In this document: one piece after another, positions 18,836-36,615 of the stretch
Layout of the letters: every line of letters starts with the position of its first letter
Numbering within the stretch: position 1 is the stretch's first letter
Assembly: GCA_050309735.1 (NCBI GenBank)
Contig: JBNRMS010000035.1
Span: 872 to 64,871, forward strand
Direction: 5' to 3'
From: Eubacteriales bacterium
GTDB lineage: Bacteria; Bacillota; Clostridia; Oscillospirales; CAG-272
DNA: 64,000 bases
The notes under the pieces: model-generated
Told to the model about the DNA's origin: nothing
The model's input: the letters and a program-made list of their open reading frames with translations, nothing else
Databases searched by the model: none
Position numbers and translations under genes: made by a program

Positions 18836-20077
18836 TCAGCTTACGGACGGCACGTTAATACCGTCTATAATAATATCAAAGTAAGGAGCGCTGCGGAGCG
18901 TCGATTCGGCGAAATAATATTTATCGCCGCTATTGACTATTGTTTCCTTGCCGTCCATACCCCATGAACCGGTATAGCTGGTCAGGTGAGCGCCGTCCTT
19001 TGTGAATTTCGAGCAGTCAAAGATATGCAGGGTTCCTGCCTTGATGGAGGCAATCGCCGCGTCAACGGCTTCCTGTGTACCGGGGGCAACCGCTGCGGGA
19101 TTGAGCTTTGTTATAGCAACCGCGTCTTCGGAATAACCCTTGGCCCAGTCTGTGACTATATCCTCGCCTCTCATCACTGATCCGATAGCATATTCATAAT
19201 AAACCTTCCACTCGTTTGTCGCCGAGGTCAGAGCCGCGTCGGGAGCGGTGCCGATCATATCGACATTATAGCCCACCGAATATGCAATTTTCCCGTCTTT
19301 GAAAGCTTTCTGAACCGCGGCAGGAGCGCCGGTCGAGTCAGCGTGCTGGCCGATGATAACCGCGCCGTTTGCCATCATGGCCTCAGCGGCGGCACCCTCC
19401 TTCTCAATATCAAACCATGACGAGGTGTAGTTTACTTCCATCACGACATTTTCATAAATAGATTTTATGCCAAGATAGAAAGCTGTGAAGCCCGATACAA
19501 CCTCAGCGTATGAGAAAGCGCCGACATAACCGACCTTAACATTGCCGTCTGCATCAAAGCTGTTAGGCTGTTTTTCTTTTGTGAGTGTACCCGATTCGAC
19601 AAGCTCTTTAATCTTCATTCCCGCAACGATACCCGAGATATATCTCGACTCGTAAACGCAGGTGAAGGCATTTTTCAGATTTGAGAGACCGCTTTTGGCG
19701 GCTTTATCGCCTGTCATGGCAATGAAAGTGATATCAGGGAACTGGCGTGCAACCTGCTCCATATAGTCCTGATGACCGAACGAGTTGGAAATTATCAGCC
19801 CGCAGCCCTGTCCGGCGAGATCCTGAGCTGCCTGCAGGCAGTCTTCAGTGTCGTCGCGAACACTGTATTTCCAAAGAATTTGGCTGCTATTGAGATTTAG
19901 CGCTTCGGCGGCCGCGGTGATGCCGTCGATATGAGCTTTTGAATAGCCTTCTGTGGCGTCTCCGACTAAAATTACGCCGACTTTGAAATCGTCGTCGGTT
20001 TTTCCGCAGGACACAAGAGTTGCGGCAGAGATTACAAGAACAAGCGCAAGGATAGCCGCTAAGAGCTTCTTAGACAT
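18836..20077 (-). CDS. BMP-family (PnrA/Med-like) substrate-binding lipoprotein
   Basis: Lipobox LVSCGK; Bmp-family pattern; first gene of the operon. Confidence 0.85.
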   Translation of the reverse strand: MSKKLLAAILALVLVISAATLVSCGKTDDDFKVGVILVGDATEGYSKAHIDGITAAAEALNLNSSQILWKYSVRDDTEDCLQAAQDLAGQGCGLIISNSFGHQDYMEQVARQFPDITFIAMTGDKAAKSGLSNLKNAFTCVYESRYISGIVAGMKIKELVESGTLTKEKQPNSFDADGNVKVGYVGAFSYAEVVSGFTAFYLGIKSIYENVVMEVNYTSSWFDIEKEGAAAEAMMANGAVIIGQHADSTGAPAAVQKAFKDGKIAYSVGYNVDMIGTAPDAALTSATNEWKVYYEYAIGSVMRGEDIVTDWAKGYSEDAVAITKLNPAAVAPGTQEAVDAAIASIKAGTLHIFDCSKFTKDGAHLTSYTGSWGMDGKETIVNSGDKYYFAESTLRSAPYFDIIIDGINVPSVS

Positions 20078-20418: not shown

Positions 20419-23400
20419 TTAAATCTCAATCTCGCCCTCGAACACCTTCACCGTGCCGCCGGTTAGGATTATGCCTTTATCCGAGGAGTTGACTATAAGG
20501 TCGCCGCCGGGAACCTTTACTGTGATATCCTCGTTTTCACGGCAATAGCCATTTTTAATGGCGGCGGCCACAGCTGCACAGGCACCCGTGCCGCAGGCGG
20601 GGGTTTCGCCGTTGCCACGCTCCCAAACACGCATTTTCAGCATATTGCTGTTCACCACTGTAACAAATTCAGTGTTTACGCGTTCTGGGAAGATTTTATG
20701 GTGTTCAAACAGGGGGCCAATTGAGTTGAGATCGAGATTATCAAGCCGGTCGCGGAAAATGACGCAGTGCGGGTTTCCGATGGCAAGACAGGTGACCCTG
20801 TATTCCCTGCCCCCCACCTCAAGCGGCATATTTACAACTTCATCCGATTTGACCAGCGCCGGAATTTCGGCAGGCGCGAAGAGAGCCGAGCCTACATTGA
20901 CGCTGACATAATTTACCTTGCCGTCTGTTATATATAAGGTTAATTCTTTTACACCACTGTCTGTCTCAACAGTGATATTCTCTCGGTCGACATAACCGTT
21001 GTCAAATATATATTTCCCAATATTCCGTATAGAGTTTCCGGCAAGCTTTCCGCGGCTGCCATCCCGGTTGTAAACCCGCATTTTAATGTCGGCGATGTCA
21101 GATTTTTCAATAAGGGCAATTCCGTCGCCGCCGATGCCAAGCTGCCTGTCGCAAAGCGTCAAGCAGAGCGATTCGGGGCTCTCAATTTTGCCGTCGAAGT
21201 TTTCGATACATATATAGTCGTCGCCGGTCGCCTGCATTTTGGTGAATCTTATTGTTTCCCGGGTCTTTTTCATGTTGTTTATGTCAACAAGTCCGGTATT
21301 CTGCTGCGTGTATCGACTGGCTATGATATCTGCAACGGCATTTGCCGTGTCAAGCGAGGTCATACAGGGGATTGAATGAAGAACGGCCTGGCGATGCAGG
21401 ATGGTATAATCGTTGAGCGTCGAATCCATCAGCGCGCCGGTATAGACGATATAGTTGATTTTTCCGTCCTCAAGCAGTTTAAATACCCGCTTATCCTTAA
21501 TGCTGACAATAATTTGAACCTCTATTCCAAGCTTTGAGACAGACATAGCTGTCTCGCGCGTGGCGTAGATTGTGAAGTGCATATCGTCAAATTTTTTGGC
21601 GAGCGAAACTATCTCCTGCTGATCCTGCGAGGCGGCGCTGAGCAGCACCCCAAGCTCGCGGTGCGAAGCAAATGACTTGAGCAGCATACCCGCCGAGGTC
21701 ATCCCTTTAAAAAGAGCCTCGCGCAGATTTCTGCCAACCCCCAGCACCTCGCCGGTCGATTTCATCTCGGGGCCGAGCGAGGAGTCGGCGTCGGTCAACT
21801 TCTCGAAGGAGAAAACCGGCACTTTGACAGCGTAGTAAGGCGGAGTTTTGTAAAGTCCGGTTCCGTATCCGAGGTCGCGCAGCTTTGCGCCGGTCATAAC
21901 CCGGGCGGCGATATCGACCATAGGGATTCCGGCAGCTTTGCTGATATACGGAACTGTCCTTGATGCTCGCGGGTTGACCTCGATAACATAAAGCTCGTTG
22001 TGATATATGAGATATTGGATATTTACAAGCCCTTTTGTTCCAAGCGATTTTGCGAGATATTCGGAGCTTTCGACAACGGTTTTCATCATCTTGTCGTTGA
22101 TGCTAAAGGGGGGATAGACGGCTATAGAGTCGCCGCTATGCACCCCGGCGCGCTCGATATGCTGCATAACTCCGGGGATAAGCACGTCCTCGCCGTCTGA
22201 TATGACATCAACCTCAATCTCCGAGCCCATCATATATTTGTCGACGAGCACCGGATTCTCGATTTTCTCGGCGAGTATTCGCTTCATGTAGGTTTTTACT
22301 TCATCCTTGTTGTAGACAATTTTCATATTCTGCCCGCCGATAACATAGGACGGGCGGAGCAGCACCGGGAAGCCGAGTTTTTCGGCCGCAGCGATTGCGT
22401 CTTCAAGATTATTAACACCCATTCCGTGCGGGCGCTTGATTCCGAATTTTTCAAGGAGTGCGTCAAACTTTTCGCGATCCTCGGCAAGGTCTATTCCTTC
22501 GGCCGAAGTGCCAAGAATTTCAATGCCTTTTTTGTGGAGATATGAGGTGAGCTTTATGGCGGTTTGCCCGCCGAAGGCAACGACCACGCCAACCGGTTTC
22601 TCAACCTTAATTATGTTCATGACATCCTCTGGGGTGAGAGGCTCAAAATAAAGGCGGTCGGCGGTGTCGTAGTCGGTTGAAACAGTTTCGGGATTGTTGT
22701 TGATAATCACAACATCATATCCGAGGCTTTTGAGCGTCCATGCGCAGTGAACAGACGAATAGTCAAACTCGATCCCCTGCCCTATTCTTATTGGCCCCGA
22801 GCCGAGCACTATTATAACCGGACGTCCGCTTCGTTTTATTTGGCGCGCCTCGCACTCCTGGTCGTAGGTCGAGTAGAAGTAGGGGGTTACAGCGTCAAAT
22901 TCTGCGGCGCAGGTGTCGACCATTTTATATACGCAGCGCGAGCTCGGCAGCTTTTTCACGCCCGAGATATGGCGAAGCGCCCGGTCGGTGTATCCGTATT
23001 TTTTTCCCTTGAGATATAGCTCCTCATTGAAATTCCTTGATATTTCGGCTTCATAATCAGCAAGGTTTTTAAACTTTTTTAAAAACCAGCGGTCAATCCG
23101 AGTAAACTCAAATATCTCGTCTATCGACATTCCACTCTTTATTGCCTCAAATATCGAGAAGATGCGCCTGTCATCGGGAGTTTTTAATCGTTCGGTGATA
23201 TCCTTTTCGGATATCGGTGCGGTGTTTAGTGTATCGAGCGAGAGCTCGGCTCCGCGAATCGCTTTCATAATTGCCATCTCAAATGAGGGGGCGATAGACA
23301 TCACTTCGCCTGTCGCCTTCATCTGTGTTCCGAGCTTGCGAGAGGCACCGACAAACTTATCAAAAGGCCATTTGGGGAATTTAACTACGATATAATCTAA

Positions 23401-24447
23401 CGCCGGCTCAAAGCAGGCGCAGGTCTTTCCGGTTATCTCGTTCTCAATCTCGTCAAGCGTGTAGCCAAGTGCGATTTTGGTGGTGATTTTTGCAATCGGA
23501 TAGCCGGTCGCTTTTGAGGCGAGCGCCGAGGAGCGTGAAACGCGCGGGTTGACCTCAATCACAGAATACTCAAAACTGTCGGGATTGAGCGCAAACTGAC
23601 AATTGCATCCGCCTACAATGTCAAGCGCCGAGATGATATTGAGCGACGCTATTCGGAGCATCTGATATTCTTTATTTGACAGAGTGACAGCCGGAGCGAC
23701 TACTATACTGTCGCCTGTGTGTATTCCAACCGGGTCTACATTCTCCATGCTGCACACCGCGATAGCGTTTCCGGCGCTGTCGCGCATTGTTTCAAATTCG
23801 ATTTCCTTCCATCCGTAGATATACTTTTCAATAAGAATCTGTCTTATCGGAGAGGCATCAAGTCCGGCCTCGGCCGCCGCCACCATCTCCTCAGGCGAAT
23901 AAGCGACGCCGCCCCCCGAGCCTCCGAGCGTGAAGGCCGGGCGGATTATGACGGGATAACCTATGCGCTCGGCGATATCAATAGCATGGTCAACATCATT
24001 CGCGATCTCCGACGGCACTGTCGGCTCGCCGATTGAATCCATAGTTTCTTTAAAAAGGCGGCGATCCTCGGCTTTGTCGATAGCATCTACATTTGTTCCG
24101 ATAAGTCTGACACCGTATTTTTCAAGAACGCCCTGTTTGCCAAGCTGCATTGACAGCGTAAGCCCGGTCTGCCCGCCAAGGCCGGCAAGCAGGCTGTCGG
24201 GGCGCTCTTTTTCTATTATTCGCGTGAGCGTTTCCACGGTGAGAGGTTCAAGGTATATTTCGTCGGCCAGCGCGTTGTCGGTCATGATAGTTGCCGGATT
24301 TGAGTTGACAAGCACCACATTAACCCCGGCAGCTTTAAGCACGCGACAGGCCTGCGCTCCGGCATAGTCAAATTCGGCGGCCTGACCGATGATTATCGGC
24401 CCTGAGCCTATCACAAGCACCTTTTTAATACTTTTATCAAGCGGCAT
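20419..24447 (-). CDS. carB: carbamoyl-phosphate synthase large subunit fused in frame to a DapF-fold (diaminopimelate-epimerase-like) C-terminal module
   Basis: Single uninterrupted 1342-codon ORF. Residues 1 to ~1065 are a full CarB (two ATP-grasp halves with GGQTGLTL / GGQTAIKL, plus the MGS-like domain). Residues ~1067-1342 are DapF-like (FTKMQATGDDY, GNPHCVIF, ERGNGETPACGTGACA). ATGA overlap with the carA stop. Confidence 0.85.
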   Translation of the reverse strand: MPLDKSIKKVLVIGSGPIIIGQAAEFDYAGAQACRVLKAAGVNVVLVNSNPATIMTDNALADEIYLEPLTVETLTRIIEKERPDSLLAGLGGQTGLTLSMQLGKQGVLEKYGVRLIGTNVDAIDKAEDRRLFKETMDSIGEPTVPSEIANDVDHAIDIAERIGYPVIIRPAFTLGGSGGGVAYSPEEMVAAAEAGLDASPIRQILIEKYIYGWKEIEFETMRDSAGNAIAVCSMENVDPVGIHTGDSIVVAPAVTLSNKEYQMLRIASLNIISALDIVGGCNCQFALNPDSFEYSVIEVNPRVSRSSALASKATGYPIAKITTKIALGYTLDEIENEITGKTCACFEPALDYIVVKFPKWPFDKFVGASRKLGTQMKATGEVMSIAPSFEMAIMKAIRGAELSLDTLNTAPISEKDITERLKTPDDRRIFSIFEAIKSGMSIDEIFEFTRIDRWFLKKFKNLADYEAEISRNFNEELYLKGKKYGYTDRALRHISGVKKLPSSRCVYKMVDTCAAEFDAVTPYFYSTYDQECEARQIKRSGRPVIIVLGSGPIRIGQGIEFDYSSVHCAWTLKSLGYDVVIINNNPETVSTDYDTADRLYFEPLTPEDVMNIIKVEKPVGVVVAFGGQTAIKLTSYLHKKGIEILGTSAEGIDLAEDREKFDALLEKFGIKRPHGMGVNNLEDAIAAAEKLGFPVLLRPSYVIGGQNMKIVYNKDEVKTYMKRILAEKIENPVLVDKYMMGSEIEVDVISDGEDVLIPGVMQHIERAGVHSGDSIAVYPPFSINDKMMKTVVESSEYLAKSLGTKGLVNIQYLIYHNELYVIEVNPRASRTVPYISKAAGIPMVDIAARVMTGAKLRDLGYGTGLYKTPPYYAVKVPVFSFEKLTDADSSLGPEMKSTGEVLGVGRNLREALFKGMTSAGMLLKSFASHRELGVLLSAASQDQQEIVSLAKKFDDMHFTIYATRETAMSVSKLGIEVQIIVSIKDKRVFKLLEDGKINYIVYTGALMDSTLNDYTILHRQAVLHSIPCMTSLDTANAVADIIASRYTQQNTGLVDINNMKKTRETIRFTKMQATGDDYICIENFDGKIESPESLCLTLCDRQLGIGGDGIALIEKSDIADIKMRVYNRDGSRGKLAGNSIRNIGKYIFDNGYVDRENITVETDSGVKELTLYITDGKVNYVSVNVGSALFAPAEIPALVKSDEVVNMPLEVGGREYRVTCLAIGNPHCVIFRDRLDNLDLNSIGPLFEHHKIFPERVNTEFVTVVNSNMLKMRVWERGNGETPACGTGACAAVAAAIKNGYCRENEDITVKVPGGDLIVNSSDKGIILTGGTVKVFEGEIEI

Positions 24448-25526
24448 CAGTTTATACCTCCCTTTTTGTGAAACTGGTCAACCATTGAAATAAACCTCTC
24501 AAAGAGGAAGGATGTGTCAAGCGGACCGGCGCAAGCCTCGGGGTGAAACTGCACCGAGAAGGCCGAAAGCCCGGGATATTCAATCCCCTCGCAGGTGCCG
24601 TCGTTTGCATTGGTGAATATCTCCCTGCCGATTTCGCCAAGACTTGAGGTGACGACGGCATATCCGTGATTCTGGCTTGTAATGTATGTGCGGCTGCCGA
24701 AAATCTCCTTAACCGGCTGATTGGCGCCGCGATGCCCGTATTTTAGCTTTTCCGTCCGGCCGCCCGCGGCGAGTGCAAGCAATTGATGCCCAAGGCAAAT
24801 TCCGAATATCGGCAACCTTCCGAGCAGTTTTTTTAGCTGCTCGATTTCATATATGTTCTCTGCCGGGTCGCCGGGGCCGTTTGAGAGCACAATTCCGTCG
24901 GGTAAGGTGGCTAGAATTTCTTCGGCCGATGCTGTAGACGGAAGCGAGCGCACACTGCAGCCCCGCTCTGTTAGCGAGCGAATTATGTTTGTTTTCGCGC
25001 CATAATCTATCAAAGTGAGCCTGAATTTTTCATTTTGTGATACAAAAATTTCCTCTTTGCCGCAGGTGACGCTACTCACAGCCCCCTCAATTTTAAAATT
25101 TCTGATAAAAGAGAGGTCGTCGGGAACACTGTCGCAGATAGCGGCGTTCATAACACCGCGCTCCCGGATGATTTTGGTCACCTGCCGGGTATCAATTCCC
25201 GAAAGCCCGACAACATTATTTCGCTCCAGAAAGGTGTTAAGGTCATACTGACTTCTGAAATTGGATGGATAGTCGCAGGCCTCGCGCACCACATAGCCCC
25301 GCACGCAGCACCTACCCTCGAAATCCTCCTCGATGATTCCATAATTGCCAATCAAAGGGAAGGTCTGAAGCACGATCTGGCCGTAATAGCTCGGATCTGT
25401 CAGCGTTTCGATGTAGCCGCACATGCCGGTTGTGAAGACCAGCTCACCGACATTTTCTATGTCGGCTCCGAACTTCTCGCCGGGGAAGACGCTACCGTCC
25501 TCCAGTACAAGATAAGCTTTTTTCAT
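24447..25526 (-). CDS. carA: carbamoyl-phosphate synthase small (glutaminase) subunit
   Basis: GICLGHQLL (Cys) and QFHPE motifs. Start moved to ATG 25526 (MKKAYLVLEDG) after GGAGAGGAAA; ORF track start is 25634. Confidence 0.92.
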   Translation of the reverse strand: MKKAYLVLEDGSVFPGEKFGADIENVGELVFTTGMCGYIETLTDPSYYGQIVLQTFPLIGNYGIIEEDFEGRCCVRGYVVREACDYPSNFRSQYDLNTFLERNNVVGLSGIDTRQVTKIIRERGVMNAAICDSVPDDLSFIRNFKIEGAVSSVTCGKEEIFVSQNEKFRLTLIDYGAKTNIIRSLTERGCSVRSLPSTASAEEILATLPDGIVLSNGPGDPAENIYEIEQLKKLLGRLPIFGICLGHQLLALAAGGRTEKLKYGHRGANQPVKEIFGSRTYITSQNHGYAVVTSSLGEIGREIFTNANDGTCEGIEYPGLSAFSVQFHPEACAGPLDTSFLFERFISMVDQFHKKGGIN

Positions 25527-25604
25527 TGTTTTATATTTTCCTCTCCCCCGGCCGCCCGAATCTACCAGTCGGTCGGGTAAAAATAAACACAAATATATAC
25601 AATT

Positions 25605-25639
25605 GAAAGATGAGGCGTCATAAGACAAACTCATCTTTC
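25605..25639 (-). terminator. hairpin between argF and carA (possible partial terminator or attenuator)
   Basis: GAAAGATGAG-N15-CTCATCTTTC 10-bp stem just after the argF stop; a mixed A/T tract follows. Confidence 0.4.
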
Positions 25640-25649
25640 AGAAATTTAT

Positions 25650-26636
25650 TCACGACAGTGTGGCGGCCATAACGGCCTTTATTGTGTGCATACGGTTCTC
25701 AGCCTGATCGAAAACAACCGAGTTTGAGCTCTCGAATACCTCGTCGGTAACCTCAAGCCCGTCAAGTTTGTATTTTTCGCCGACAGTGCGGCCGATACCG
25801 GTTTTCATATCGTGGAAGGCCGGCAGACAGTGCATAAAAATTGCACGATTTCCGGCAATACCCATAAGTTTTTTGTTGACCTGATAGGGTAGCAGTGCTG
25901 AGATACGCTCATCCCAAACCTCTTCGGGCTCGCCCATTGATACCCAAACGTCGGTATATATAACATCAGCCCCTCTTGCAGCCTCGGCCGGGTCGGATAA
26001 AAATCTTAGTTTCGCGCCCGACGCACTCGCCTCAGACTTGCATACAGCTATTAAATCGTCGGACGGAAAATATCCGGTGGGAGCGCACGCTGTAAAATTA
26101 AGCCCCATTTTAGCGCAGCCGACCATGAGCGAGTTGCCCATGTTATACCTTGCGTCACCAATATAAACGAAATTTATACCCCGAAGACGCCCGAATTTCT
26201 CGCGGATGGTCATAAGGTCTGCCAGCACCTGTGTGGGGTGAAATTCGTTTGTCAGACCGTTCCAAATCGGAACGCCCGCATATCTTGCCAGCTCCTCTAC
26301 TATCTCCTGCCCAAATCCGCGGTATTCAATCCCGTCATACATCCGGCCGAGAACCCGCGCCGTGTCGGAGATGCTCTCTTTCTTGCCAATTTGAGAGGAG
26401 GCGGGATCAAGATAGGTAACTCCCATCCCCAGGTCATGCGCGGCAACCTCAAAGGCGCAGCGTGTACGCGTGCTTGTTTTTTCGAATATAAGCGCTATAA
26501 TTTTGCCCTCGCAGAGTCGGTGGGCGATTCCCGCCTTCTTCTTTGCCTTAAGCTCGTCGGCAAGGTCGACAAGGCGGCTGATCTCCTCGGAGGTAAAATC
26601 AAGCAATTTAAGAAAGCTTCTTCCTTTTAGATTCAT
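25650..26636 (-). CDS. argF: ornithine carbamoyltransferase
   Basis: STRTR, HPTQ and HCLPA motifs; start ATG 26636 after GGAGGTAGG. Confidence 0.93.
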
Positions 26637-26650
26637 TCCTACCTCCATAA

Positions 26651-27814
26651 TTATTCGGCGCAAGCCGCCCTGATAATCCCGACTGCTCTCTTTAGCACCC
26701 CATCGGGTATATTAAGCGCAGGCAGAAGCCTGAGCTTGTGTTTTGCCTTGATTAGGATAACACCCGCCTCGCGGCATTTGGCGATAACCTCGGATGCATT
26801 CTTCACAGTTTCAATGCCAAGCATCAGCCCCATCCCGGTGACGCTTACAATTCCCGGAGAACCCGAGAGTTCCCTTATTATATAATCCGACTTTTTTGTC
26901 ACTTTGTCAAGTAGTTTTTCATCAATTCTTGATAAAATATTTAAAGCGCCGGCCGAAACAACCGGATTTCCCCCGAAAGTTGAGCCGTGAGAGCCGGGTG
27001 TGAGTACATTTTTCGTCTTTTTGCCGAGAAGAGTTGCGCCTATCGGCAACCCGCCACCAAGCCCCTTTGCGGTGGTGACTATATCGGGAAGAATATCATA
27101 GTGCATATAGGCAAAATACTTTCCTGTCCGTCCGTTTCCGGTCTGAACTTCATCGGCGACAAGCAGGACATCATGCTGATCGGCAAGCCTTTTTAGCTCT
27201 TGCACAAAATCATATTCAAGAGGCAAAACTCCACCCTCGCCCTGAATCAGCTCAAACATCACCGCCGCAACCCTACCGGTCTTTATCATTTTTTCGATCG
27301 ATTCTATGTCACCCGGCTCGGCATAGTAAAAACCGTCTGTGAGCGGAAGAAAATCCTTGTGAAAGTCACTCTGCCCGGTTGCGGCCAGTGTTGTTATTGT
27401 CCGGCCGTGAAAGCTGTTCTTGAGGGTGATAATTTTGTATCGGTCTTTGCCGTATTTGTCGGCTGCGTATTTGCGCGCTGTTTTAATGGCGCATTCGTTT
27501 GCCTCGGCGCCCGAGTTTGAGAAGAAAACCTTACTCAGCAGGCTGACCTCACACAAGCGCTCGGCAAGGAGTACACATGGGTCACTATAAAATAAATTCG
27601 ACGTATGTTGACATATATTTAATTGTTTTGTGACGGCCTCGATCCATTCATCATCACACTCGCCAAAGGTGTTAACCGCGATACCGCTGCCAAGGTCTAT
27701 ATATTCCTTGCCGTTCTCATCGTAAACAAGCGATCCCTTCCCGCGTACGATATTGAGCGGAAAGCGGACGTATGTAGCGGCGATAAACTCGGCGTCCTTC
27801 TGGTATATATTCAT
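26651..27814 (-). CDS. argD: acetylornithine aminotransferase
   Basis: Class-III aminotransferase motifs ([31 protein letters not shown]); start ATG 27814. Confidence 0.9.
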
Positions 27815-27828
27815 AATGTATATCTCCC

Positions 27829-28698
27829 TCAATCCTCTGTTTCAGCTATCATTGTCCCCGCTCCCTCGTCGGTCAGCATTTCAATTAAGAGCGAGTGGGG
27901 TATTCGGCCGTCAATAATAGTCACCTTGGAAACTCCCCTCATTATCGCTTCGATACAACACTCAATCTTGGGTATCATTCCGCCCGAAACACTGCCATCG
28001 GCAATCATTCTCCGAGCGTCTTCAAGATTGACGAAACGAATCAGTGAGGAAGGGTCGTTGACGTCGCGCAGCACCCCGGCGGTGTCGGTCAGAGTCATAA
28101 GGCGCTCGGCCTTCATGGCTCCCGCAATATATGCAGCGGCTGTGTCGGCATTGATGTTGTAGACATTACCCTCCGCGTCGCAGCCAACCGTTGAGACAAC
28201 CGGGATATATCCGTTACGGAGCAGGTCGGTGATAGGCTCGACATTCACATTTGTAATCTCGCCGACAAAACCGTGAATTTCGTTCTTTTTTCGCGCCTCA
28301 ATCAGCCTGCCGTCAATTCCGCAGATGCCGATAGCGCGGCCGCCCTTAGTCTGTATTAAATTGACAAGGTTTTTGTTAACCTTTCCGGCAAGCACCATCT
28401 GCACTATCTCGGCAGACTCTTTATCTGTCACCCGCAGCCCGTCAATAAAAACCGATTCCAGGCCGAATTTTTCGAGCACATCTGTAATTTCGGGGCCGCC
28501 GCCGTGTACCAGAACAACACTGACGCCGATTAGCTGAAGCAGTATTATATCATCCATAACCTGCCGCTTTAACTCCTCGTTTATCATCGCGTTTCCGCCG
28601 TACTTGACAACGACGATTTTATTATAATATTTTTGTATATACGGCAGCGCCTGTGTCAGTACCTCGGCGCGCTGAGCGTTCACAATATCTAATGACAT
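27829..28698 (-). CDS. argB: acetylglutamate kinase
   Basis: VVKYGGNAM, VHGGGP and NINADTAA motifs. Confidence 0.93.
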   Translation of the reverse strand: MSLDIVNAQRAEVLTQALPYIQKYYNKIVVVKYGGNAMINEELKRQVMDDIILLQLIGVSVVLVHGGGPEITDVLEKFGLESVFIDGLRVTDKESAEIVQMVLAGKVNKNLVNLIQTKGGRAIGICGIDGRLIEARKKNEIHGFVGEITNVNVEPITDLLRNGYIPVVSTVGCDAEGNVYNINADTAAAYIAGAMKAERLMTLTDTAGVLRDVNDPSSLIRFVNLEDARRMIADGSVSGGMIPKIECCIEAIMRGVSKVTIIDGRIPHSLLIEMLTDEGAGTMIAETED

Positions 28699-28781
28699 AT
28701 AATCTTCCTCATTTTATAACAATATTCATCTGTCAGTCGGGACTTGTGCCGCTGCCATAGTCTTGAGCCGAAAGGTGCAAA

Positions 28782-29993
28782 CTATGTTCTGTAATCTCCG
28801 TTTATTTTAACATAGTCGTACGTGAGGTCGCAGCCCCATGCTCTCGCTCTGCAGCGCCCGCTTTTAAGTTCGATTTTAATGATAACCTCTTTCTCAAGCA
28901 AAATTTCCTTGGCCGTTTGCTCAGAGAAAGCTATCACCATGCCGTCCTTACACACCATAATCTCACCCGCCCCCGAGGCAAACGAAACATCGATTCGACC
29001 GACGTCAATTTCAGCCCCGCTATATCCGATGGCGCAGAGTACGCGTCCGCAGTTTGCGTCTGCCCCGAACATCATCGATTTAACCAGTGATGAACTTATG
29101 ACACTTTTTGCAACAGTCTTTGCGGTTTTCTCATCGGGTGCGCCCTCAACCTTGCATTCGAGCAGCTTTGTTGCTCCCTCGCCGTCTGCCGCTATCATGC
29201 GGCAGAGGTAGAGGGTGACGGTGTTGAGCGCCTCCACGAATGCCGAAAAGTCCTCCCCCTCGGAAGTTATTTCGCGATTTTCCGCCATGCCGTTTGCCAT
29301 CACGCTCACCATGTCGTTAGTTGAAGTGTCGCCGTCGACGCTTATCATGTTAAAGGTGTTTTTCACGTCTTCGGAGAGTGCCTTTTGCAGCATTTTTTGT
29401 GATATTGCGGCGTCTGTTGTGATAAAGGCAAGCATTGTGGCCATATTCGGATTTATCATACCCGAACCTTTGGCAATGCCGCCGATTTTACACTCAACCC
29501 CGCCAATCATAAAGCTGACAGCGATCTCTTTTTGTGAAATGTCGGTGGTCATTATCCCCTCGGCCGCCTCGCGGCTGTTTTGACCGAGCGATTTTACAAG
29601 TTCGGGGATTCCTTTTTTTATCGGCGTAATGTCAAGTTTTTGCCCGATTACCCCGGTCGACGCTATGACTACATCCTTCGGGGAGATTCCAAGTTCGCGC
29701 CCTATAAGCTCGCAGGTCAGTTCGGCGATTTCAACGCCGTTTGGATTACAGGTGTTGGCATTGCCGCTGTTGCAGATTATGGCCTGAGCGTATCCGTCGG
29801 CGATATTATTTTTTGTGACCAAAAGCGGCGCGCCCTTAACAAGATTTGTGGTATAAACCGCCGCTGTTATCGCTCTTCTTTCACTGAAAATCAGGGAAAG
29901 ATCGCGTTTGCTGCGGTTTTTACGTACGCCGCAGTGAATTCCGCTCGCGGTGAATCCTTTGGCGGCACAGACGCCGCCTTCTATAATTTTCAT
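28782..29993 (-). CDS. argJ: bifunctional ornithine acetyltransferase / N-acetylglutamate synthase
   Basis: Self-cleavage site PNMATMLAFITTDA. Start ATG 29993, 13 nt after GAAAGG; ORF track start is 30005. Confidence 0.92.
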   Translation of the reverse strand: MKIIEGGVCAAKGFTASGIHCGVRKNRSKRDLSLIFSERRAITAAVYTTNLVKGAPLLVTKNNIADGYAQAIICNSGNANTCNPNGVEIAELTCELIGRELGISPKDVVIASTGVIGQKLDITPIKKGIPELVKSLGQNSREAAEGIMTTDISQKEIAVSFMIGGVECKIGGIAKGSGMINPNMATMLAFITTDAAISQKMLQKALSEDVKNTFNMISVDGDTSTNDMVSVMANGMAENREITSEGEDFSAFVEALNTVTLYLCRMIAADGEGATKLLECKVEGAPDEKTAKTVAKSVISSSLVKSMMFGADANCGRVLCAIGYSGAEIDVGRIDVSFASGAGEIMVCKDGMVIAFSEQTAKEILLEKEVIIKIELKSGRCRARAWGCDLTYDYVKINGDYRT

Positions 29994-30159
29994 TCTAATA
30001 ACCATGCCTTTCTGTTAGCCGAGGTTTGTGCCGGCTCGGAGCCTGTCAATTTGTTGCCATTCATAAGAGGAAGGAGGCACAAAATTCACCGTTTGAGCGA
30101 AGCTTGCTTCACTCAAGCGGTTGCAATCTGTTCCAAAAAGATAATAGCGCAAACAAAAG

Positions 30160-31089
30160 TTAAAGCGTCAATCCTTTTTTGGCCGGAATGCCGAGGGCTA
30201 TATTCATACACTCAACAGCCGCGCCCGACGCCCCCTTGCCGAGGTTGTCGAACTGCGCGTACAGGGTTATGCGCTCGTCGTTGCCCGCGACTGTTATCTT
30301 CATTTGGTCAAGTCCTGTGAGTGCGCCGCTCGATATGAAGCCCCTGCTGTCAATAGAATCACAATATCGAACAAGACCATTCCTGTATTTGTTTTTGTAT
30401 ATATTAGTGATGTCTCCTGCATTCGCTCCGCTCAGCATCCGGGCAAAAAGCGGGATTGTTATGAGCATTCCGCTGAAATAATCGGCAACGACAGGAGTGA
30501 AGTGCGGCTCGTATACAAGCCGACTTATTGCTCGCATTTCCTTTAAGTGCTTGTGCCGCTGCTCGGTTGCGTAAATTCGAGGTGAGGAATATTCATCTGT
30601 TCTGTCGCCATTCTCATATTCGGCGATCATCTTCTTGCCGCCGCCCGAATACCCGGTCAGAGAGAAGCAGGTTAACTCTGTTTTTGCCGGCAGTATCCCA
30701 GCCTCGGTCAGCGGATATATGAGGGCGATAAAGCCGCTCGCGTGGCACCCCGGCACTGTTATACGTTTTGAATTTTTTATCGCGTTGTGGTGGGCCTCGG
30801 ACAACTCCGGAAAGCCATATGACCAGCCCGGGGCTGTTCGGTGTGCTGTTGAGGTGTCGATAATTATTGTGTCCGGGTTCTCAACCATTCGAACCGCCTC
30901 GATTGCCGCCTCGTCGGGCAGGCAGAGGAAGGCAACGTCGGCCATATCAAGACATTTTTTTATCTCATCGGGATCTTTTCTAAGCTCGGGAGAAATTGAA
31001 ATCAGCTTTATATCATCTCTTGCCTCGAGCCGCTTATAAATTTTAAGGCCCGTGGTGCCGGCCTCGCCGTTAATAAAAACGCTTTTCAT
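30160..31089 (-). CDS. argC: N-acetyl-gamma-glutamyl-phosphate reductase (short type)
   Basis: NGEAGTTG N-terminal NAD fold, catalytic VPGCHASG, ~310-aa form. Confidence 0.88.
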   Translation of the reverse strand: MKSVFINGEAGTTGLKIYKRLEARDDIKLISISPELRKDPDEIKKCLDMADVAFLCLPDEAAIEAVRMVENPDTIIIDTSTAHRTAPGWSYGFPELSEAHHNAIKNSKRITVPGCHASGFIALIYPLTEAGILPAKTELTCFSLTGYSGGGKKMIAEYENGDRTDEYSSPRIYATEQRHKHLKEMRAISRLVYEPHFTPVVADYFSGMLITIPLFARMLSGANAGDITNIYKNKYRNGLVRYCDSIDSRGFISSGALTGLDQMKITVAGNDERITLYAQFDNLGKGASGAAVECMNIALGIPAKKGLTL

Positions 31090-31139
31090 ATAAATATAAA
31101 TCTCCTAAACAAGTGGCGACAATCTCCTCTCGCCGCGCC

Positions 31140-32528
31140 TTATCTGTCTGCCGCGAGATACTCCTCGAACCACTTTATTTGAGCGGCTACCGAGGCAGGA
31201 CAAGTTCCGCCGGCCGAAATGCGCTTAGCAACGCAATTCGCAAGGTCAATTTCGCGATAGAGATCGTCCTCAAAGAGTGGGTCATGTGATTTGTATTCTT
31301 CAAGAGTCAGTTCTTCAAGGACACGGCCGCATTTAATCGAATATGCCACAATTTGCCCAACCGTCTTGTATGCCGCCCTGAAGGGCACGCCTTTTTTTGT
31401 AAGGTAGTCGGCAAGGTCTGTCGCATTGATAAATCCGCGCTGTGCCGCCGCGTACATATTCTCCCCGTTGACCTTCATTGTCTTGAGCATCGGCGCGAAA
31501 ACCTCAAGGCAGATTTTAACCGTATCAACAGCGTCGAATATCGCTTCCTTGTCCTCCTGCATATCCTTGTTATATGCCAGAGGAAGCCCTTTTAGAGTGG
31601 TAAGAAGCGAGATAAGCCCCCCGTAAACTCGGCCCGTCTTGCCGCGTACGAGTTCGGCCATGTCGGGATTCTTTTTTTGAGGCATTATGCTCGAACCCGT
31701 GGTATAGGAATCGTCAAGCTCTATAAACCGAAACTCCCACGACGACCAGAGCACGATTTCCTCAGAGAAGCGCGAGAGGTGCATCATCAGGATTGAGAAG
31801 CAGGAGAGAAGCTCAAGGCAGAAATCTCGGTCGGACACTCCGTCAATACTGTTTCGGACTATCCCGTCAAATCCGAGAGCAGACGCCGTCATCTCTCTAT
31901 CTGTATCATAGGTTGTTCCCGCAAGCGCGCATGAGCCGAGCGGAGACAAATTCATGCGTTTCACAGCGTCACAAATACGTCCAATATCCCGCTCAAACAT
32001 ACTCGCATATGCTAAAATGTGATGTGAAAATGCAACAGGCTGCGCGCGCTGCAAGTGTGTGTAGCCGGGCATGATTACATTCTTATTGGCATTTGCCTGC
32101 TCAACAATCGCCCCTATCATCTCCCTAATCAGGTCGATTATCTCATCGGCTTCGTCGCGCAGATAGAGCCTTGTGTCGAGCGCCACCTGGTCGTTTCTGC
32201 TTCGCGCCGTGTGCAGCTTTTTGCCGGCCTCGCCCACCCTTGCGGTTAGCTCGGATTCGACAAACATATGTATATCCTCGGCACCTGGGTCGAATTCAAG
32301 CTCTCCCGCTTCAATGTCGGCAAGAATTCCCTCAAGGCCTTTTATTATTATATCTGCCTCGCCCTCGGTGATTATTTTACAAGCGGCCAGCATTTCAGCG
32401 TGCGCTATCGAGCCTTTAATGTCCTGACGGTACATTTTTGAATCAAAGCTTATCGAGGAATTGAAGTGGTCTGCTTTTTTATCGAGCGCACCCGAGGCGC
32501 GCCCCGCCCACATCTTATTGCCGCTCAT
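31140..32528 (-). CDS. argH: argininosuccinate lyase
   Basis: Fumarate-lyase signature [12 protein letters not shown]; 4-nt overlap with argG. Confidence 0.95.
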
Positions 32529-33751
32529 AAGCCGTTATTCGCTTTCATCTTAGCGTAAACCTTGATCGGCAGGCCGTAGAGATTAATAAATCCGGTAGCC
32601 TCACTCTGGTCGTAGACATTGTCCTCTTCGAAGGTGGCGATGTCGGCGTCGTAAAGCGAGTAGGGCGAGGATACGCCGGCATTAATAAGGTTGCCCTTAT
32701 AGAGCTTGAGAGTGACGTCTCCGGTTACATATTTCTGTGTGGTTTTCACAAAGGCGAGCAGTGCCTCGGTCAGCGGTGTAAACCAGAGCGCAGAGTAAAC
32801 CTGTTCGGCAAGGCGGAGAGCGACAAGCGATTTATAGTGCGAGGTGTCTCGGTCAAGGCATAGGCTCTCAAGAACCTTGTGCGCGTGATAGAGTATCGCT
32901 CCGCCCGGTGTTTCATAGACGCCGCGACATTTTATGCCGACCAGTCGGTTCTCGACAATGTCAAGGAGTCCTATCCCGTTCTCTCCGCCGAGTTTATTAA
33001 GTGTTTTGACAAGCTCAACCGAGTCCATCTTTTTGCCGTTGACCGCCGTCGGAATGCCTGATTCAAAATGCACCGTCACATATGTAGGCTCATCGGGCGC
33101 CATTTCGGGCGAAACGCCCATTTCAAGGAAGCCCTTTTTATTGTATAGAGGCTCGTTTTTCGGATCTTCAAGATCCATTCCCTCATGCGAAAGGTGCCAG
33201 ATATTCTTGTCCTTTGAGTAGTTGGTTTCGCGGCTGATTTTGAGAGGTATATTGTGCGCCTCGGCATATTCAATCTCTTCCTCGCGCGATTTTATGCTCC
33301 ATTCACGCCAGGGGGCTATGATATGCATATCGGGCGCGAAGGCCTTTATGGCCAGCTCAAAGCGCACCTGATCATTTCCTTTGCCGGTGCATCCGTGGCA
33401 GATGGCATCTGCTTGCTCGGCAAGCGCAATCTCGGCTATCCGCTTTGCTATTGGAGGACGTGCGGCAGCCGTTCCAAGCATATAATCCTCATAAAGGGCG
33501 CCTGCCTGAACCAGCGGAAAAATATATTCCTCGAGAAATTCCTTTGTAAGATCTTCTACATAGAGCTTCGATGCTCCTGTCTTGAGGGCTTTCTCCTCAA
33601 GTCCTTCGAGTTCGTCTGCCTGACCGACGTTACCCGAAACGGCGATAACCTCGCAGTTGTTGTAATTTTCTTTGAGCCACGGGATAATTATCGAGGTGTC
33701 AAGTCCCCCGGAATATGCAAGTACAACCTTTTTAATTTTACTTTTATCCAT
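32525..33751 (-). CDS. argG: argininosuccinate synthase
   Basis: [12 protein letters not shown]-PPase motif and [13 protein letters not shown]. Confidence 0.95.
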
Positions 33752-33964: not shown

Positions 33965-34897
33965 TCAGCTTGCAATTAGGTGGTCAATAATTTTTAGTGC
34001 ATCGCGATATCTGTTCTCCTTATTGTCGGACGAAAATAATCCTATTATATATTCGCGGCTACCGTCGTCAAGTGTAACAGTGCAAATAAGATTATAATTC
34101 CCCGCCCCCGCAGAGCCGGTTTTTAGACCGGTGACATATTCGCAAAAAAACTCACTCTCATCGTCAAGCATAAGATTTGTGTTTATCCAACGGTTGGTGT
34201 GGCCGCTGGCATATGTCACATTATCATATTTCATTCCGGCATATTTCATTATTATTTCATTTTGTGAAGCAATCATCGAGATAAGAGCAATGTCTTCGGT
34301 TGTTGTGTAATGGTTGTCGTTATAATATCCATCGGGCGAGGTGAAGCGACTGCCGCAAAGCCCTATCTGCTCGGCGTATTCATTCATTCCGCGAATAAAA
34401 TATTCAACCGCTTCCCTGCCGTCTATATCCTCACTCCCCGCAAGCTTTTTGCCTGCCGCTGCCGCGAGGGCATATGCCGCGTCGTTTCCCGAGGGCAGCA
34501 GCATTCCCTCGATTAACATTTCGACGCTCAGCCTATGGTGCGATTTTATATACGCTATTGATGAATCGGACGCAACAAGCGCAAGCTCGCTCCCGGGGGT
34601 TATAATTTCGTCAAGCCCGAGCAATTCAAGCGCGAAAAGGATTGTGAGCAGTTTAGTTGTGCTCGCCGGATATACAACTAGCTCCTCGCCCTTCTTGTAT
34701 ATAAATTCATGATTTGCAACATCATATACAAAGGCTTGTCCCGACAAAATATCAATGTCAAGCTGCTCAGCAACGCAGGGGATATAGCCCACGTCATTCT
34801 CCGAGTGCAGAACCGCGGCCGGGCGCTCGCCGGCGCATGAGGCAAGCAGCAACAGCGCGGCAATACTTATAATAAGTAATCTTTTTTGAGCTTTCAT
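33965..34897 (-). CDS. serine-type D-Ala-D-Ala carboxypeptidase (peptidase S11), lipoprotein
   Basis: SxxK (ASTTK), SxN (PSGND) and KTG (LKTGSAG) motifs; lipobox LLLASCAG. Confidence 0.88.
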   Translation of the reverse strand: MKAQKRLLIISIAALLLLASCAGERPAAVLHSENDVGYIPCVAEQLDIDILSGQAFVYDVANHEFIYKKGEELVVYPASTTKLLTILFALELLGLDEIITPGSELALVASDSSIAYIKSHHRLSVEMLIEGMLLPSGNDAAYALAAAAGKKLAGSEDIDGREAVEYFIRGMNEYAEQIGLCGSRFTSPDGYYNDNHYTTTEDIALISMIASQNEIIMKYAGMKYDNVTYASGHTNRWINTNLMLDDESEFFCEYVTGLKTGSAGAGNYNLICTVTLDDGSREYIIGLFSSDNKENRYRDALKIIDHLIAS

Positions 34898-35057: not shown

Positions 35058-36434
35058 TTAGGGCCTTAGCCTGTCGCGGTCTCTCGGAAAAGCGGTCGCC
35101 TGCTTGACGTTTTCAAGCCCGAGTATATGTCCGACAATGCGCTCAAGTCCGAGTCCCATGCCGCCGTGAGGGGGCATCCCGTACTTGTGCATAGTCAGGT
35201 AGTCCTCAAATTCAGCGGGGTTCATGTGCCGCTTTTTCATTTTAGCAACCTGTTCCTCGTAGTCATGTATGCGCTGGCCGCCGGTTGTAACCTCAAGGCC
35301 GTTGAGCAGCATATCAAAGCTCAGGGTATAGGTCGGGTTGGCGGGATCGTCCATCGCGTAGAAGGGGCGTTTGACTGTCGGGTAGTGGGTTATGAAAAGG
35401 ACGGGTGAGTTGTATTCTTTGTTGAAATATTCGCCCAGCCACTTCTCTTCCTCGGGCGCAAAGTCGGGCTCGAGCAGCGCTTCTTGCCCCTTTGTGCCGG
35501 GATGCGCGTCGGCAAAAAGTCTCTTTGCCTCGGTGAACTTTATCTTCGGAAAGCGCGTAAGTTCGGGCAGTCTGTTCCCCTTGCCGAGGAAGATCTCAAG
35601 CTCGGGAGCGTATTCCTCGTTTAGTGTGCGGTACATATGCCGGAACATACGCGCCTCAAGTTCGAGCAAATCCTCAAAGGAATTAATGAAGCCCATTTCA
35701 AGGTCAAGCCCTTGAAACTCGTTTATGTGGCGGTTTGTGCTGTATTTCTCGGCTCTGAAAACCGGACCGACGGTGTATGCCTTGCCGAAAACCCCGACCA
35801 TAATCTGCTTATACATCTGCGGGCTTTGGTTGAGATATGCTTTCTCGCCGAAGTAATTAACCTCAAACATATCAGCCCCCCCCTCAGCGCCTGCCGAAAC
35901 GATCTTGGGCGGCACAAACTCGGTGAACCCTTCCTCGCGCAGGAAGGTGCGGAAGGAGTGAAGAACACCGTCACAGACCCTCATGATCGCCCGAACCTTC
36001 GGATTTCGCAGGGTGAGCACGCGGTTGTCGAGCAGGGTATTGAGATTCAGCTTCTCGATCTTTCTGTCGTTGCCGATTTCGACCGGGGGCACGGCCGCCC
36101 TTCCCGACACCCGCATCATCTTCGCTATCATTATATCAAAACCGAGCCGGCTGCGTTCCTCGGCAACAATTGTTCCTTCAATCACCACACACTCCTCAAC
36201 TGCGAAATCCTTTATATCGCAATCCGATCTCTCCGCATCCCAAACGCACTGGAACACAATCCTCGGCGAGCGGATATTGACAAAGGCAAAGCCGCTCATC
36301 AGCTTTATTCGGTGAATCGCGCCCTTAACGGTTACCGGGTCGCCGTCCTTCAGCTCGCCGGAATTGTATTTTTCAATTATCAGCGAGATATCGCTCATAT
36401 CGGCCTTCTTTTCAAAATCAAGAAATTCTATCAT
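35058..36434 (-). CDS. aspS: aspartate--tRNA ligase, archaeal/eukaryal type (type 2), probably non-discriminating
   Basis: Class IIb motifs FRAEKYSTNRHINEFQGLDLEMGF and GGMGLGLERIV, plus the C-terminal FPRDRDRLRP typical of type-2 AspRS rather than AsnRS. Adjacent to gatCAB. Start ATG 36434 is 13 nt after GAAAGG; ORF track start is 36446. Confidence 0.8.
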   Translation of the reverse strand: MIEFLDFEKKADMSDISLIIEKYNSGELKDGDPVTVKGAIHRIKLMSGFAFVNIRSPRIVFQCVWDAERSDCDIKDFAVEECVVIEGTIVAEERSRLGFDIMIAKMMRVSGRAAVPPVEIGNDRKIEKLNLNTLLDNRVLTLRNPKVRAIMRVCDGVLHSFRTFLREEGFTEFVPPKIVSAGAEGGADMFEVNYFGEKAYLNQSPQMYKQIMVGVFGKAYTVGPVFRAEKYSTNRHINEFQGLDLEMGFINSFEDLLELEARMFRHMYRTLNEEYAPELEIFLGKGNRLPELTRFPKIKFTEAKRLFADAHPGTKGQEALLEPDFAPEEEKWLGEYFNKEYNSPVLFITHYPTVKRPFYAMDDPANPTYTLSFDMLLNGLEVTTGGQRIHDYEEQVAKMKKRHMNPAEFEDYLTMHKYGMPPHGGMGLGLERIVGHILGLENVKQATAFPRDRDRLRP

Positions 36435-36615
36435 TATTATGACCATACCTTTCTGTTTTTAGAGGTTTGTGCCGGTACCGGATCCGCCGGTATTGCTGCC
36501 ATCTCCTACAGCTCCAAAGGCACAAATCTTGTTGTTTGAAAGAAAACTTGTTTTCTTACAAACTTCTCCCTTATGCCACCCCGGGGGGCGGCTATATATT
36601 TTTATTTTGGCACAA

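Follow-up and report, generated by a model that had tools for sequence, protein, structure and literature searches.

Background

Carbamoyl phosphate synthetase (CPS) is a textbook allosteric enzyme, and what is known of its regulation comes, to our knowledge, from stand-alone CarAB and from eukaryotic fusions alone; we know of no studied CPS with an allosteric input of the kind considered below. The large subunit of the E. coli enzyme, CarB (PDB 1ce8, 1bxr and 1jdb), ends at residue 1073. Diaminopimelate (DAP) epimerase, DapF (EC 5.1.1.7), is a two-domain protein with a catalytic pair of cysteines, Cys73 and Cys217 in the Haemophilus influenzae enzyme. The DapF of P. aeruginosa melts at a higher temperature when its substrate or product is present (PMC13728532). 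Here we describe a gene in which a DapF-like module follows CarB in a single reading frame, carB::dapF-like, found in a stretch of 64,000 nucleotides (the window) from a Eubacteriales bacterium of the Oscillospirales lineage CAG-272 (assembly GCA_050309735.1, contig JBNRMS010000035.1, positions 872 to 64,871 of the forward strand).

Two described systems offer points of comparison beyond DapF and CPS themselves. In E. coli, DapF and the RNA pyrophosphohydrolase RppH (PDB 6d13) provide an example of a DapF fold acting on another enzyme without catalysis, the C73A/C217A double mutant of DapF being inactive yet able to bind and stimulate RppH according to PMC4227774. E. coli DapF is however a separate protein with both cysteines and its partner is a Nudix hydrolase, whereas the module described here is covalently attached to CarB. 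The proline-racemase superfamily belongs to the same fold superfamily as the module (Foldseek matches 6r76 and 4k7g) but at 12-15% identity and in different families. PMC4364671 distinguishes Cys-Cys, Cys-Thr (trans-3-hydroxy-L-proline dehydratase) and Ser-Cys (function unknown) types within it, and loss of one cysteine marks a changed function there. A previous sequence-only reading of this window had drawn a parallel with this superfamily, and it was a fair one since such one-cysteine types exist. In the Cys-Thr dehydratase it is the second cysteine that has been replaced, whereas our module has lost the first, to alanine, as in the Ser-Cys type; it falls in the DapF sequence family and not in Pro_racemase. 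A full-text literature search turned up no account of CarB joined to DapF, nor of a DapF domain or pseudoenzyme that is Cys-less. GapMind 2026 (PMC13759103), which used LL-DAP secretion by E. coli delta-dapF as a read-out, covers DapF2 and other gaps in its passages on DapF but not a CarB-DapF fusion.

Results and discussion

A complete DapF-like module at the allosteric end of CarB

The fused gene is one open frame of 1342 amino acids on the minus strand (20419-24447), the last gene of an arginine operon, and its C-terminal 276 residues (1067-1342; 20422-21249, stop codon 20419-20421) make up the module. This module scores 258.9 bits against the TIGR00652 DapF profile (cut-off 114.65), covering profile positions 2-268 of 270, is matched by PF01678 in two stretches (173.4 bits) and aligns to five solved DapFs, 2otn (E 1.3e-62), 9mro, 3ejx, 8qzy and 1bwz. 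It shares with canonical DapF the full-length two-domain fold, the second cysteine, and the contacts that hold a substrate at its alpha-carboxylate and distal end; it differs in having alanine for the first cysteine and aspartate for Asn11, in its fusion to the C-terminus of CarB, and in a host that uses the meso-DAP dehydrogenase (Ddh) route and has no need of an epimerase. The module is a DapF by sequence and fold; judged from its catalytic pair, it appears not to be a DAP epimerase and is a candidate DapF-family pseudoenzyme attached to CPS.

Residues 930-1342 were modelled with AlphaFold2 from a 63-row alignment; the model had a mean pLDDT of 92 and a pTM of 0.77 and predicts the two-domain DapF fold. 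Foldseek placed the module nearest to ligand-bound closed DapFs, with a TM(target) of 0.92 and rmsd of 1.8 to 9mro_A with aziDAP and a TM(target) of 0.90 to 3ejx, open forms lying further off (rmsd 3.0-3.6). Searches of the ESM Atlas returned ordinary DapF clusters only. Predicted as a complex, the MGS-like allosteric domain of CarB (930-1062) and the module (1067-1342) scored 0.00 in both runs against a mark of 0.32, in runs that had no control pairs and that therefore count neither for nor against docking.

The CarB part (residues 1-1046; 21310-24447, minus strand) comprises two ATP-grasp halves, an oligomerisation domain and the MGS-like allosteric domain in Pfam, matches full-length CarB profiles (NF003671, 1440.2 bits, cut-off 599; TIGR01369, 1412 bits, cut-off 1027), has a carA partner and is the only CarB of the genome. 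The MGS-like domain spans residues 945-1030 (21358-21615, minus strand; PF02142, 36.1 bits, cut-off 24.1). Taken alone it found no match among PDB sequences; the longer stretch of residues 600-1043 did align, pairing with residues 617-1055 of the 1073 of E. coli CarB to the end of the allosteric domain, and the extra module therefore starts just beyond the natural C-terminus. What the protein has over E. coli CarB is thus 276 residues of DapF fold after a conserved 20-residue junction (residues 1047-1066; 21250-21309, minus strand). The junction carries a motif, N-T-E-L-V-D-I-N-x-M-R, conserved among fused homologues: all 105 sequences have Thr1051, and each of the Glu, Leu, Val and Asp of the motif occurs in 100-103 of them. 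We also considered a separately translated DapF-like protein from an internal start at Met1059. Neither a stop codon nor an evident Shine-Dalgarno sequence is seen ahead of Met1059, which makes separate translation unlikely, and the candidate was rejected on this ground and because the junction is conserved as protein.

Loss of one catalytic cysteine from an otherwise conserved pocket

Alignment to the solved DapFs places Ala1136 (GCC, 21040-21042) at the first catalytic cysteine, Cys73, and Asn1142 (21022-21024) at the conserved cysteine of the 'RC' motif, Cys79, while the second motif, ERGNGETPACGTG, retains Cys1285 (20593-20595) at Cys217 within an intact ERG-x-GET-x-x-CGTG, all on the minus strand. 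All the residues named by the sequence-only reading, these three among them, and the alanine codon it gave are right. The catalytic pair is thus Ala1136 and Cys1285. A single base error is ruled out for Ala1136 because GCC lies two substitutions from any cysteine codon (TGY). DGSE of canonical DapF reads DGSR in the module and GNDF reads GDDY, with Asp1076 (21220-21222, minus strand) at the Asn11 site. The same reading had held that the GNDF motif was lacking, of which the Asn to Asp change does depart from catalytic relatives; the rest was overstated, as stand-alone DapFs with both cysteines from related genomes usually have tyrosine in place of phenylalanine and the two residues preceding the glycine vary in canonical DapFs.

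Substrate contacts were taken from PMC8225329 and PMC12039745, which list Asn11, Gly74, Asn75, Gly218, Ser/Thr219, Asn64, Asn157, Asn190, Glu208 and Arg209, and nine of these ten are present in the module, the exception being Asn11, replaced by Asp1076. The same papers describe Asn11 of canonical DapF as accepting a hydrogen bond from the reactive alpha-amine. In our view Asp1076 could still accept this bond while adding a negative charge. The second cysteine and the other ten tabulated ligand-contact and pK-site residues are intact. The pocket keeps both helix N-termini at which the alpha-carboxylate is held (Gly-Asn and Gly-Thr), the Asn/Asn/Asn/Glu/Arg set for the distal L-amino-acid end and, within it, the Glu1276-Arg1277 pair (20617-20622, minus strand; Glu208 and Arg209), which binds the amino and the carboxyl group of that end.

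A search with residues 1060-1342 against proteins of 738-2349 amino acids gave 5161 matches at E ≤ 0.001 among 7994 candidates scored. The best 120 matches all contain CPSase and PF01678 domains and, where a source is named, derive from Clostridia, Oscillospiraceae, Ruminococcaceae or Eubacteriales metagenome genomes. Across these 120 and our protein the Cys73 site is alanine in 114, glycine in seven and cysteine in none, while all 121 have the second cysteine, Asn64, Glu208 and Arg209; the Asn11 site is aspartate in 107 and asparagine in 14. By these counts the change at the Cys73 site goes beyond chance or error. The clade has also acquired constraints of its own at positions variable in canonical DapFs, Asn1083, Glu1114, Val1265 and Lys1311 being 99% and Asn1266 95% conserved, with Arg1128 (beside Asn64) and Asn1279 (in the ERG-x-GET loop before the second cysteine) at 82-84%. 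Three residues on from the lost cysteine, residue 1139 (21031-21033, minus strand), equivalent to Gly76 of the canonical CGNG, is serine in our protein. Over the 121 sequences it is Cys in 56, Ser in 51, Ala in seven, Asn in six and Val in one, a Cys/Ser toggle that is too variable for a replacement base.

Among the best 150 matches of a representative search at 50% clustering the first site is cysteine in 134, a gap in one and another residue in 15, the last being largely fragments of fused proteins. Three stand-alone DapF-like representatives of about 290 amino acids (P0187, P0237 and P0258) are without both catalytic cysteines, indicating that dead DapF paralogues also occur outside the CarB fusion.

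Distribution and history of fused modules

In a sample of the same order, 123 of 151 genomes had a DapF match, in frames of about 280-300 amino acids (stand-alone) or about 1340-1380 amino acids (fused) and often in both. In a class-wide sample of 300 scored genomes, 51 matches span the CarB-DapF junction, that of this genome included, and the fusion is carried by 49 of the 300; the other two matches (G357 and G413) have an in-frame stop at the junction, leaving adjacent carB and dapF in the same frame. In these two (G357:C73:7588-8823 and G413:C57:1473-2633) a Cys-intact dapF lies one stop codon from carB, in what looks like the pre-fusion state. We aligned 94 fused modules (ours included), 38 stand-alone DapFs and the two adjacent genes. 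Both cysteines are kept in all 38 stand-alone DapFs and in both adjacent genes, while 62 of the 94 fused modules are without at least one and 32 keep both. The first and second sites of the deficient modules read Ala-Cys (37), Gly-Cys (10), Ser-Cys (9), Tyr-Cys (1) and Phe-Cys (1), with the second cysteine lost in four more, Cys-Ser, Thr-Ser, Gly-Ser and Ala-Ala, so that it is kept in 90 of 94 fused modules. Loss of the cysteine is a lineage trait and not an error. Asp replaces Asn11 in 13 deficient modules out of 62 and in no intact sequence out of 72; this change arose later, in modules already Cys-less, and is uncoupled from the loss of the cysteine.

The 32 Cys-intact fusions, from related Clostridia, share the architecture and junction of our protein but keep both cysteines. 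In eight genomes no route to meso-DAP other than the fusion was found, and there the fusions are probably true bifunctional enzymes. In another genome a Cys-intact fused CarB-DapF (G089:C29:3621-5330) is followed within about 40 bases on the same strand by a stand-alone dapF, the two DapF sequences being 59% identical.

A tree of 61 rows, with both cysteine columns removed, places our module within a clade of 26 Cys-less modules (98% SH-aLRT) from 14 family codes and requires at least three changes for loss of the cysteine. A single clade of all 38 deficient modules in it was not rejected by the AU test (p = 0.121), and we therefore do not claim repeated loss from this tree. On a FastTree of 134 rows, whose support values are less reliable, the intact or deficient state changes 11 times by parsimony, at least four of the changes being forced by starred branches, while the fused or unfused state changes only twice. 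In our reading, neighbouring carB and dapF genes fused once, long ago, and the thiol was then lost on more than one occasion, the count of these losses not being firm. The fusion is patchy even within the family of our genome, as two relatives (G049 and G095) have a CarB without a module and two others (G147 and G021) have no CarB match at E ≤ 1e-100, one of these having only a stand-alone DapF.

An alternative route to meso-DAP

The fused module is the sole DapF match in this genome (1.86 Mb, 96.75% complete). The genome does encode Ddh (411 bits, cut-off 180.6), in a head-to-tail cluster of dapA, dapB and ddh outside the window (C30:49402-52207), with a second dapA on contig C64 and lysA on C77; the two LL-DAP aminotransferase (DapL) families were both under their cut-offs here (65.2 against 364.7 and 148.7 against 593.25 bits). 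Given the Ddh cluster and no DapL above cut-off, meso-DAP and lysine can be made without LL-DAP or an epimerase. Since Ddh makes meso-DAP directly, the module is not needed for lysine or the cell wall, and the only DAP isomer made in this organism is meso-DAP.

The same redundancy is seen among relatives, with stand-alone DapF status in the order sample taken from match counts per genome. Sixty of the 62 genomes with a Cys-deficient fusion have a back-up, 33 a stand-alone DapF and 27 others a Ddh over cut-off. The remaining two, drafts that are 97% (G033) and 90% (G005) complete, had neither a stand-alone DapF nor Ddh among the matches, whereas a congener of the first (G003) has a stand-alone DapF and two of the second (G061 and G035) have Ddh. 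Conversely, both cysteines are kept in eight of the ten fused genomes for which the analysis found no other route. Tabulated two by two, cysteine state against the presence of another route gives an odds ratio of 10 (Fisher p = 0.0024), which we treat as descriptive because the genomes are kin and not independent.

These data bear on whether the module might still epimerise DAP, with Asp1076, a water molecule or the serine three residues on standing in for the thiol. All binding residues and the second cysteine are present and Asp1076, at the Asn11 site, would contact the reactive amine. Against this, the change to aspartate is confined to 13 of the 62 deficient modules and is uncoupled from cysteine loss; the cysteine is kept where no other route was found and given up where there is a back-up; no aminotransferase over cut-off would form the LL-DAP substrate here; and the E. 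coli double cysteine mutant is stated to be inactive (PMC4227774). We consider an epimerase with another base highly improbable and the least likely of the alternatives. The interpretation in the sequence-only reading, which held that a two-base epimerase cannot work with one thiol, is supported to the extent that the module is very probably not the epimerase of this cell: alanine has taken the place of the Cys73-equivalent base, which would act on one face of the substrate, and for this reason no epimerisation of DAP is expected.

Selection on the module and its pocket

Ratios of dN/dS by the method of Nei and Gojobori were 0.073, 0.292, 0.137, 0.097 and 0.089 for five Cys-deficient pairs; of the Cys-intact fused pairs two could be evaluated, and these gave 0.014 and 0.032. 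Synonymous sites were saturated in another three pairs. In nine genomes with both forms the Cys-less fused modules had a mean identity of 61.4% against 53.6% for the stand-alone DapFs, the fused form being the better conserved in 34 of 36 genome pairs, which are not independent. Only 37 columns out of 277 are invariant across the order's 38 deficient modules, and these include all eight ligand contacts tested (Asn64, Gly74, Asn157, Asn190, Glu208, Arg209, Gly218 and Thr219); over all 62 deficient modules each of the eight is retained in 59-62. The module is under purifying selection and is kept by something other than decay. The catalytic pair is dispensable, being lost where redundant and replaced by assorted residues, sometimes at both thiols, while the residues for the distal L-amino-acid end and for the alpha-carboxylate are held almost always.

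A structural passenger, or a slowly decaying relic, would persist only through its covalent link to an essential enzyme; it would lack any ligand function and might serve folding, solubility or oligomerisation through a DapF-type dimer. The repeated loss of catalytic residues, with its 11 parsimony changes on the 134-row tree and at least four of them forced, is what such a relic would be expected to show, as are the loss of pocket residues in some lineages, the existence of relatives that live without the module and dN/dS ratios above those of Cys-intact fused pairs. It accounts poorly for the retention of pocket residues that have no structural reason to be invariant, for a module better conserved than the active stand-alone enzyme, for dN/dS ratios of 0.07-0.29 and for the new invariant positions that arose in the clade of our protein, and we regard it as unlikely.

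The invariance of the second cysteine raises another alternative, a new one-thiol enzyme in which Cys1285 is the sole base and abstracts a proton from one face of a DAP-like substrate (elimination or dehydration, isomerisation, decarboxylation), in a reaction that might be linked to arginine or carbamoyl-phosphate metabolism. Such an enzyme would explain why this cysteine is so widely kept along with the pocket, and why new residues, Arg1128 and Asn1279, have settled near the site; PhzF and 3-hydroxyproline dehydratases are among the more distant Foldseek neighbours, and the related proline-racemase superfamily contains a Cys-Thr dehydratase (PMC4364671). However, the four fused modules that are also without the second cysteine are still full length, the vacated Cys73 site is variable (Ala, Gly, Ser, Thr, Tyr or Phe) with no new catalytic residue fixed, no neighbouring gene points to a substrate, and it is the first cysteine that has gone, like the Ser-Cys type and unlike the dehydratase. 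We judge a one-thiol enzyme to be quite unlikely.

A putative ligand-binding accessory domain

We give about an even chance to the reading that we favour, in which the module is a non-epimerase, ligand-binding accessory domain on CarB. The C-terminal 276 residues would be an ex-enzyme with a complete DapF fold, fixed to the allosteric end of CarB, its ligand being meso-DAP or a comparable L-amino acid whose far end carries a charge, and it would give CPS an additional regulatory or structural input. The parts of this reading differ in strength. Conservation of the pocket suggests that the module probably still binds a small molecule. That it regulates CarB is possible, although we lean against it; a regulatory or organising role on CPS is the natural guess because the junction to the allosteric end is fixed and conserved. 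We infer both the identity of the ligand and its effect on CarB. Work by Pillai et al. in 2006 is reported to have found that the proton of the D-centre of meso-DAP faces Cys217 and not Cys73, and if this mechanism holds, a pocket with alanine for Cys73 should still accept meso-DAP. Aspartate in place of Asn11 might just as well suit a ligand that is cationic at its far end, such as lysine, ornithine or arginine. In its most specific form, which we think unlikely, a DapF-derived receptor domain would bind meso-DAP or another aspartate-family or basic amino acid at the former active site and tune carbamoyl-phosphate supply to the state of lysine and cell-wall synthesis, a branch that draws on aspartate in competition with the making of pyrimidines and arginine.

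Several observations weigh against a ligand-binding accessory domain. The second cysteine is present in all 121 sequences of the closest clade, which is more than plain binding seems to need and leaves room for one-thiol chemistry. Replacement of Asn11 by aspartate alters the charge at the site of the reactive amine, so that the ligand may not be DAP. The dN/dS ratios of deficient pairs exceed those of Cys-intact fused pairs, and some relaxation has therefore occurred. The pocket has decayed in three modules (G365, G415 and G068) that look truly degenerate, each in a genome that also has a stand-alone DapF, and both cysteines have changed in two others (G035 and G109). Relatives of the same family (G049 and G095) have CarB frames of 1059 and 1064 amino acids and no DapF homologue, which makes the module dispensable for CPS and hence an accessory. 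Finally, the pTM of the two-domain model is only 0.77, and its pLDDT falls to 75 and 69 in the 10-residue blocks covering the junction at 1040-1059.

Comparison of the allosteric domain itself with that of E. coli CarB showed that the equivalents of Thr974 and Thr977 are kept as Thr963 and Thr966, and that the positions of Lys954, Lys993 and Asn1015 are occupied by Gln, Ser and Tyr. We take these five to be the nucleotide-effector residues of E. coli CarB, and if this list is right the classical UMP/IMP site of the fused protein may be altered.

Genomic context

The operon on the minus strand runs argG, argH, argC, argJ, argB, argD, argF, carA, carB::dapF-like. The genes from argG to argF occupy 25650-33751 and are followed by carA (24447-25634; NF009475, 423.2 bits), which encodes the small subunit of CPS and whose stop overlaps the start of carB. 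Upstream of the operon on the same strand are a VanY-D-like D-Ala-D-Ala carboxypeptidase homologue (33965-34897), well under its cut-off (155.9 against 625 bits), and an aspartate-tRNA(Asn) ligase of the non-discriminating type (35058-36446; NF003483, 470 bits). On the 3′ side of carB::dapF-like a perfect sigma-70-type promoter, TTGACA-17-TATAAT with an extended TG (20289-20261, minus strand), opens a separate downstream unit for a Bmp/PnrA-type ABC transporter, and a hairpin with a 10-bp stem (20133-20109) lies between this promoter and the gene for the Bmp/PnrA-type binding protein (18836-20077).

Conclusions

If the favoured reading is true, a conserved domain derived from a dead amino-acid epimerase would represent a new way to regulate or organise CPS. 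It would be common in Clostridia, where the fusion occurs in 49 of the 300 genomes sampled across the class and some two thirds of the fused modules examined are Cys-deficient, and a large share of gut and rumen Clostridia would carry the extra CPS domain. Automatic annotation will call the module DapF, because its score lies well above the TIGR00652 cut-off, and pathway tools will then assign the wrong lysine route to genomes whose fused module is Cys-deficient. The family would also offer a clean natural case of the passage from enzyme to pseudoenzyme, in which loss of the thiol followed the fusion, in genomes where a stand-alone DapF or Ddh rendered the activity redundant, and the pocket stayed under selection.

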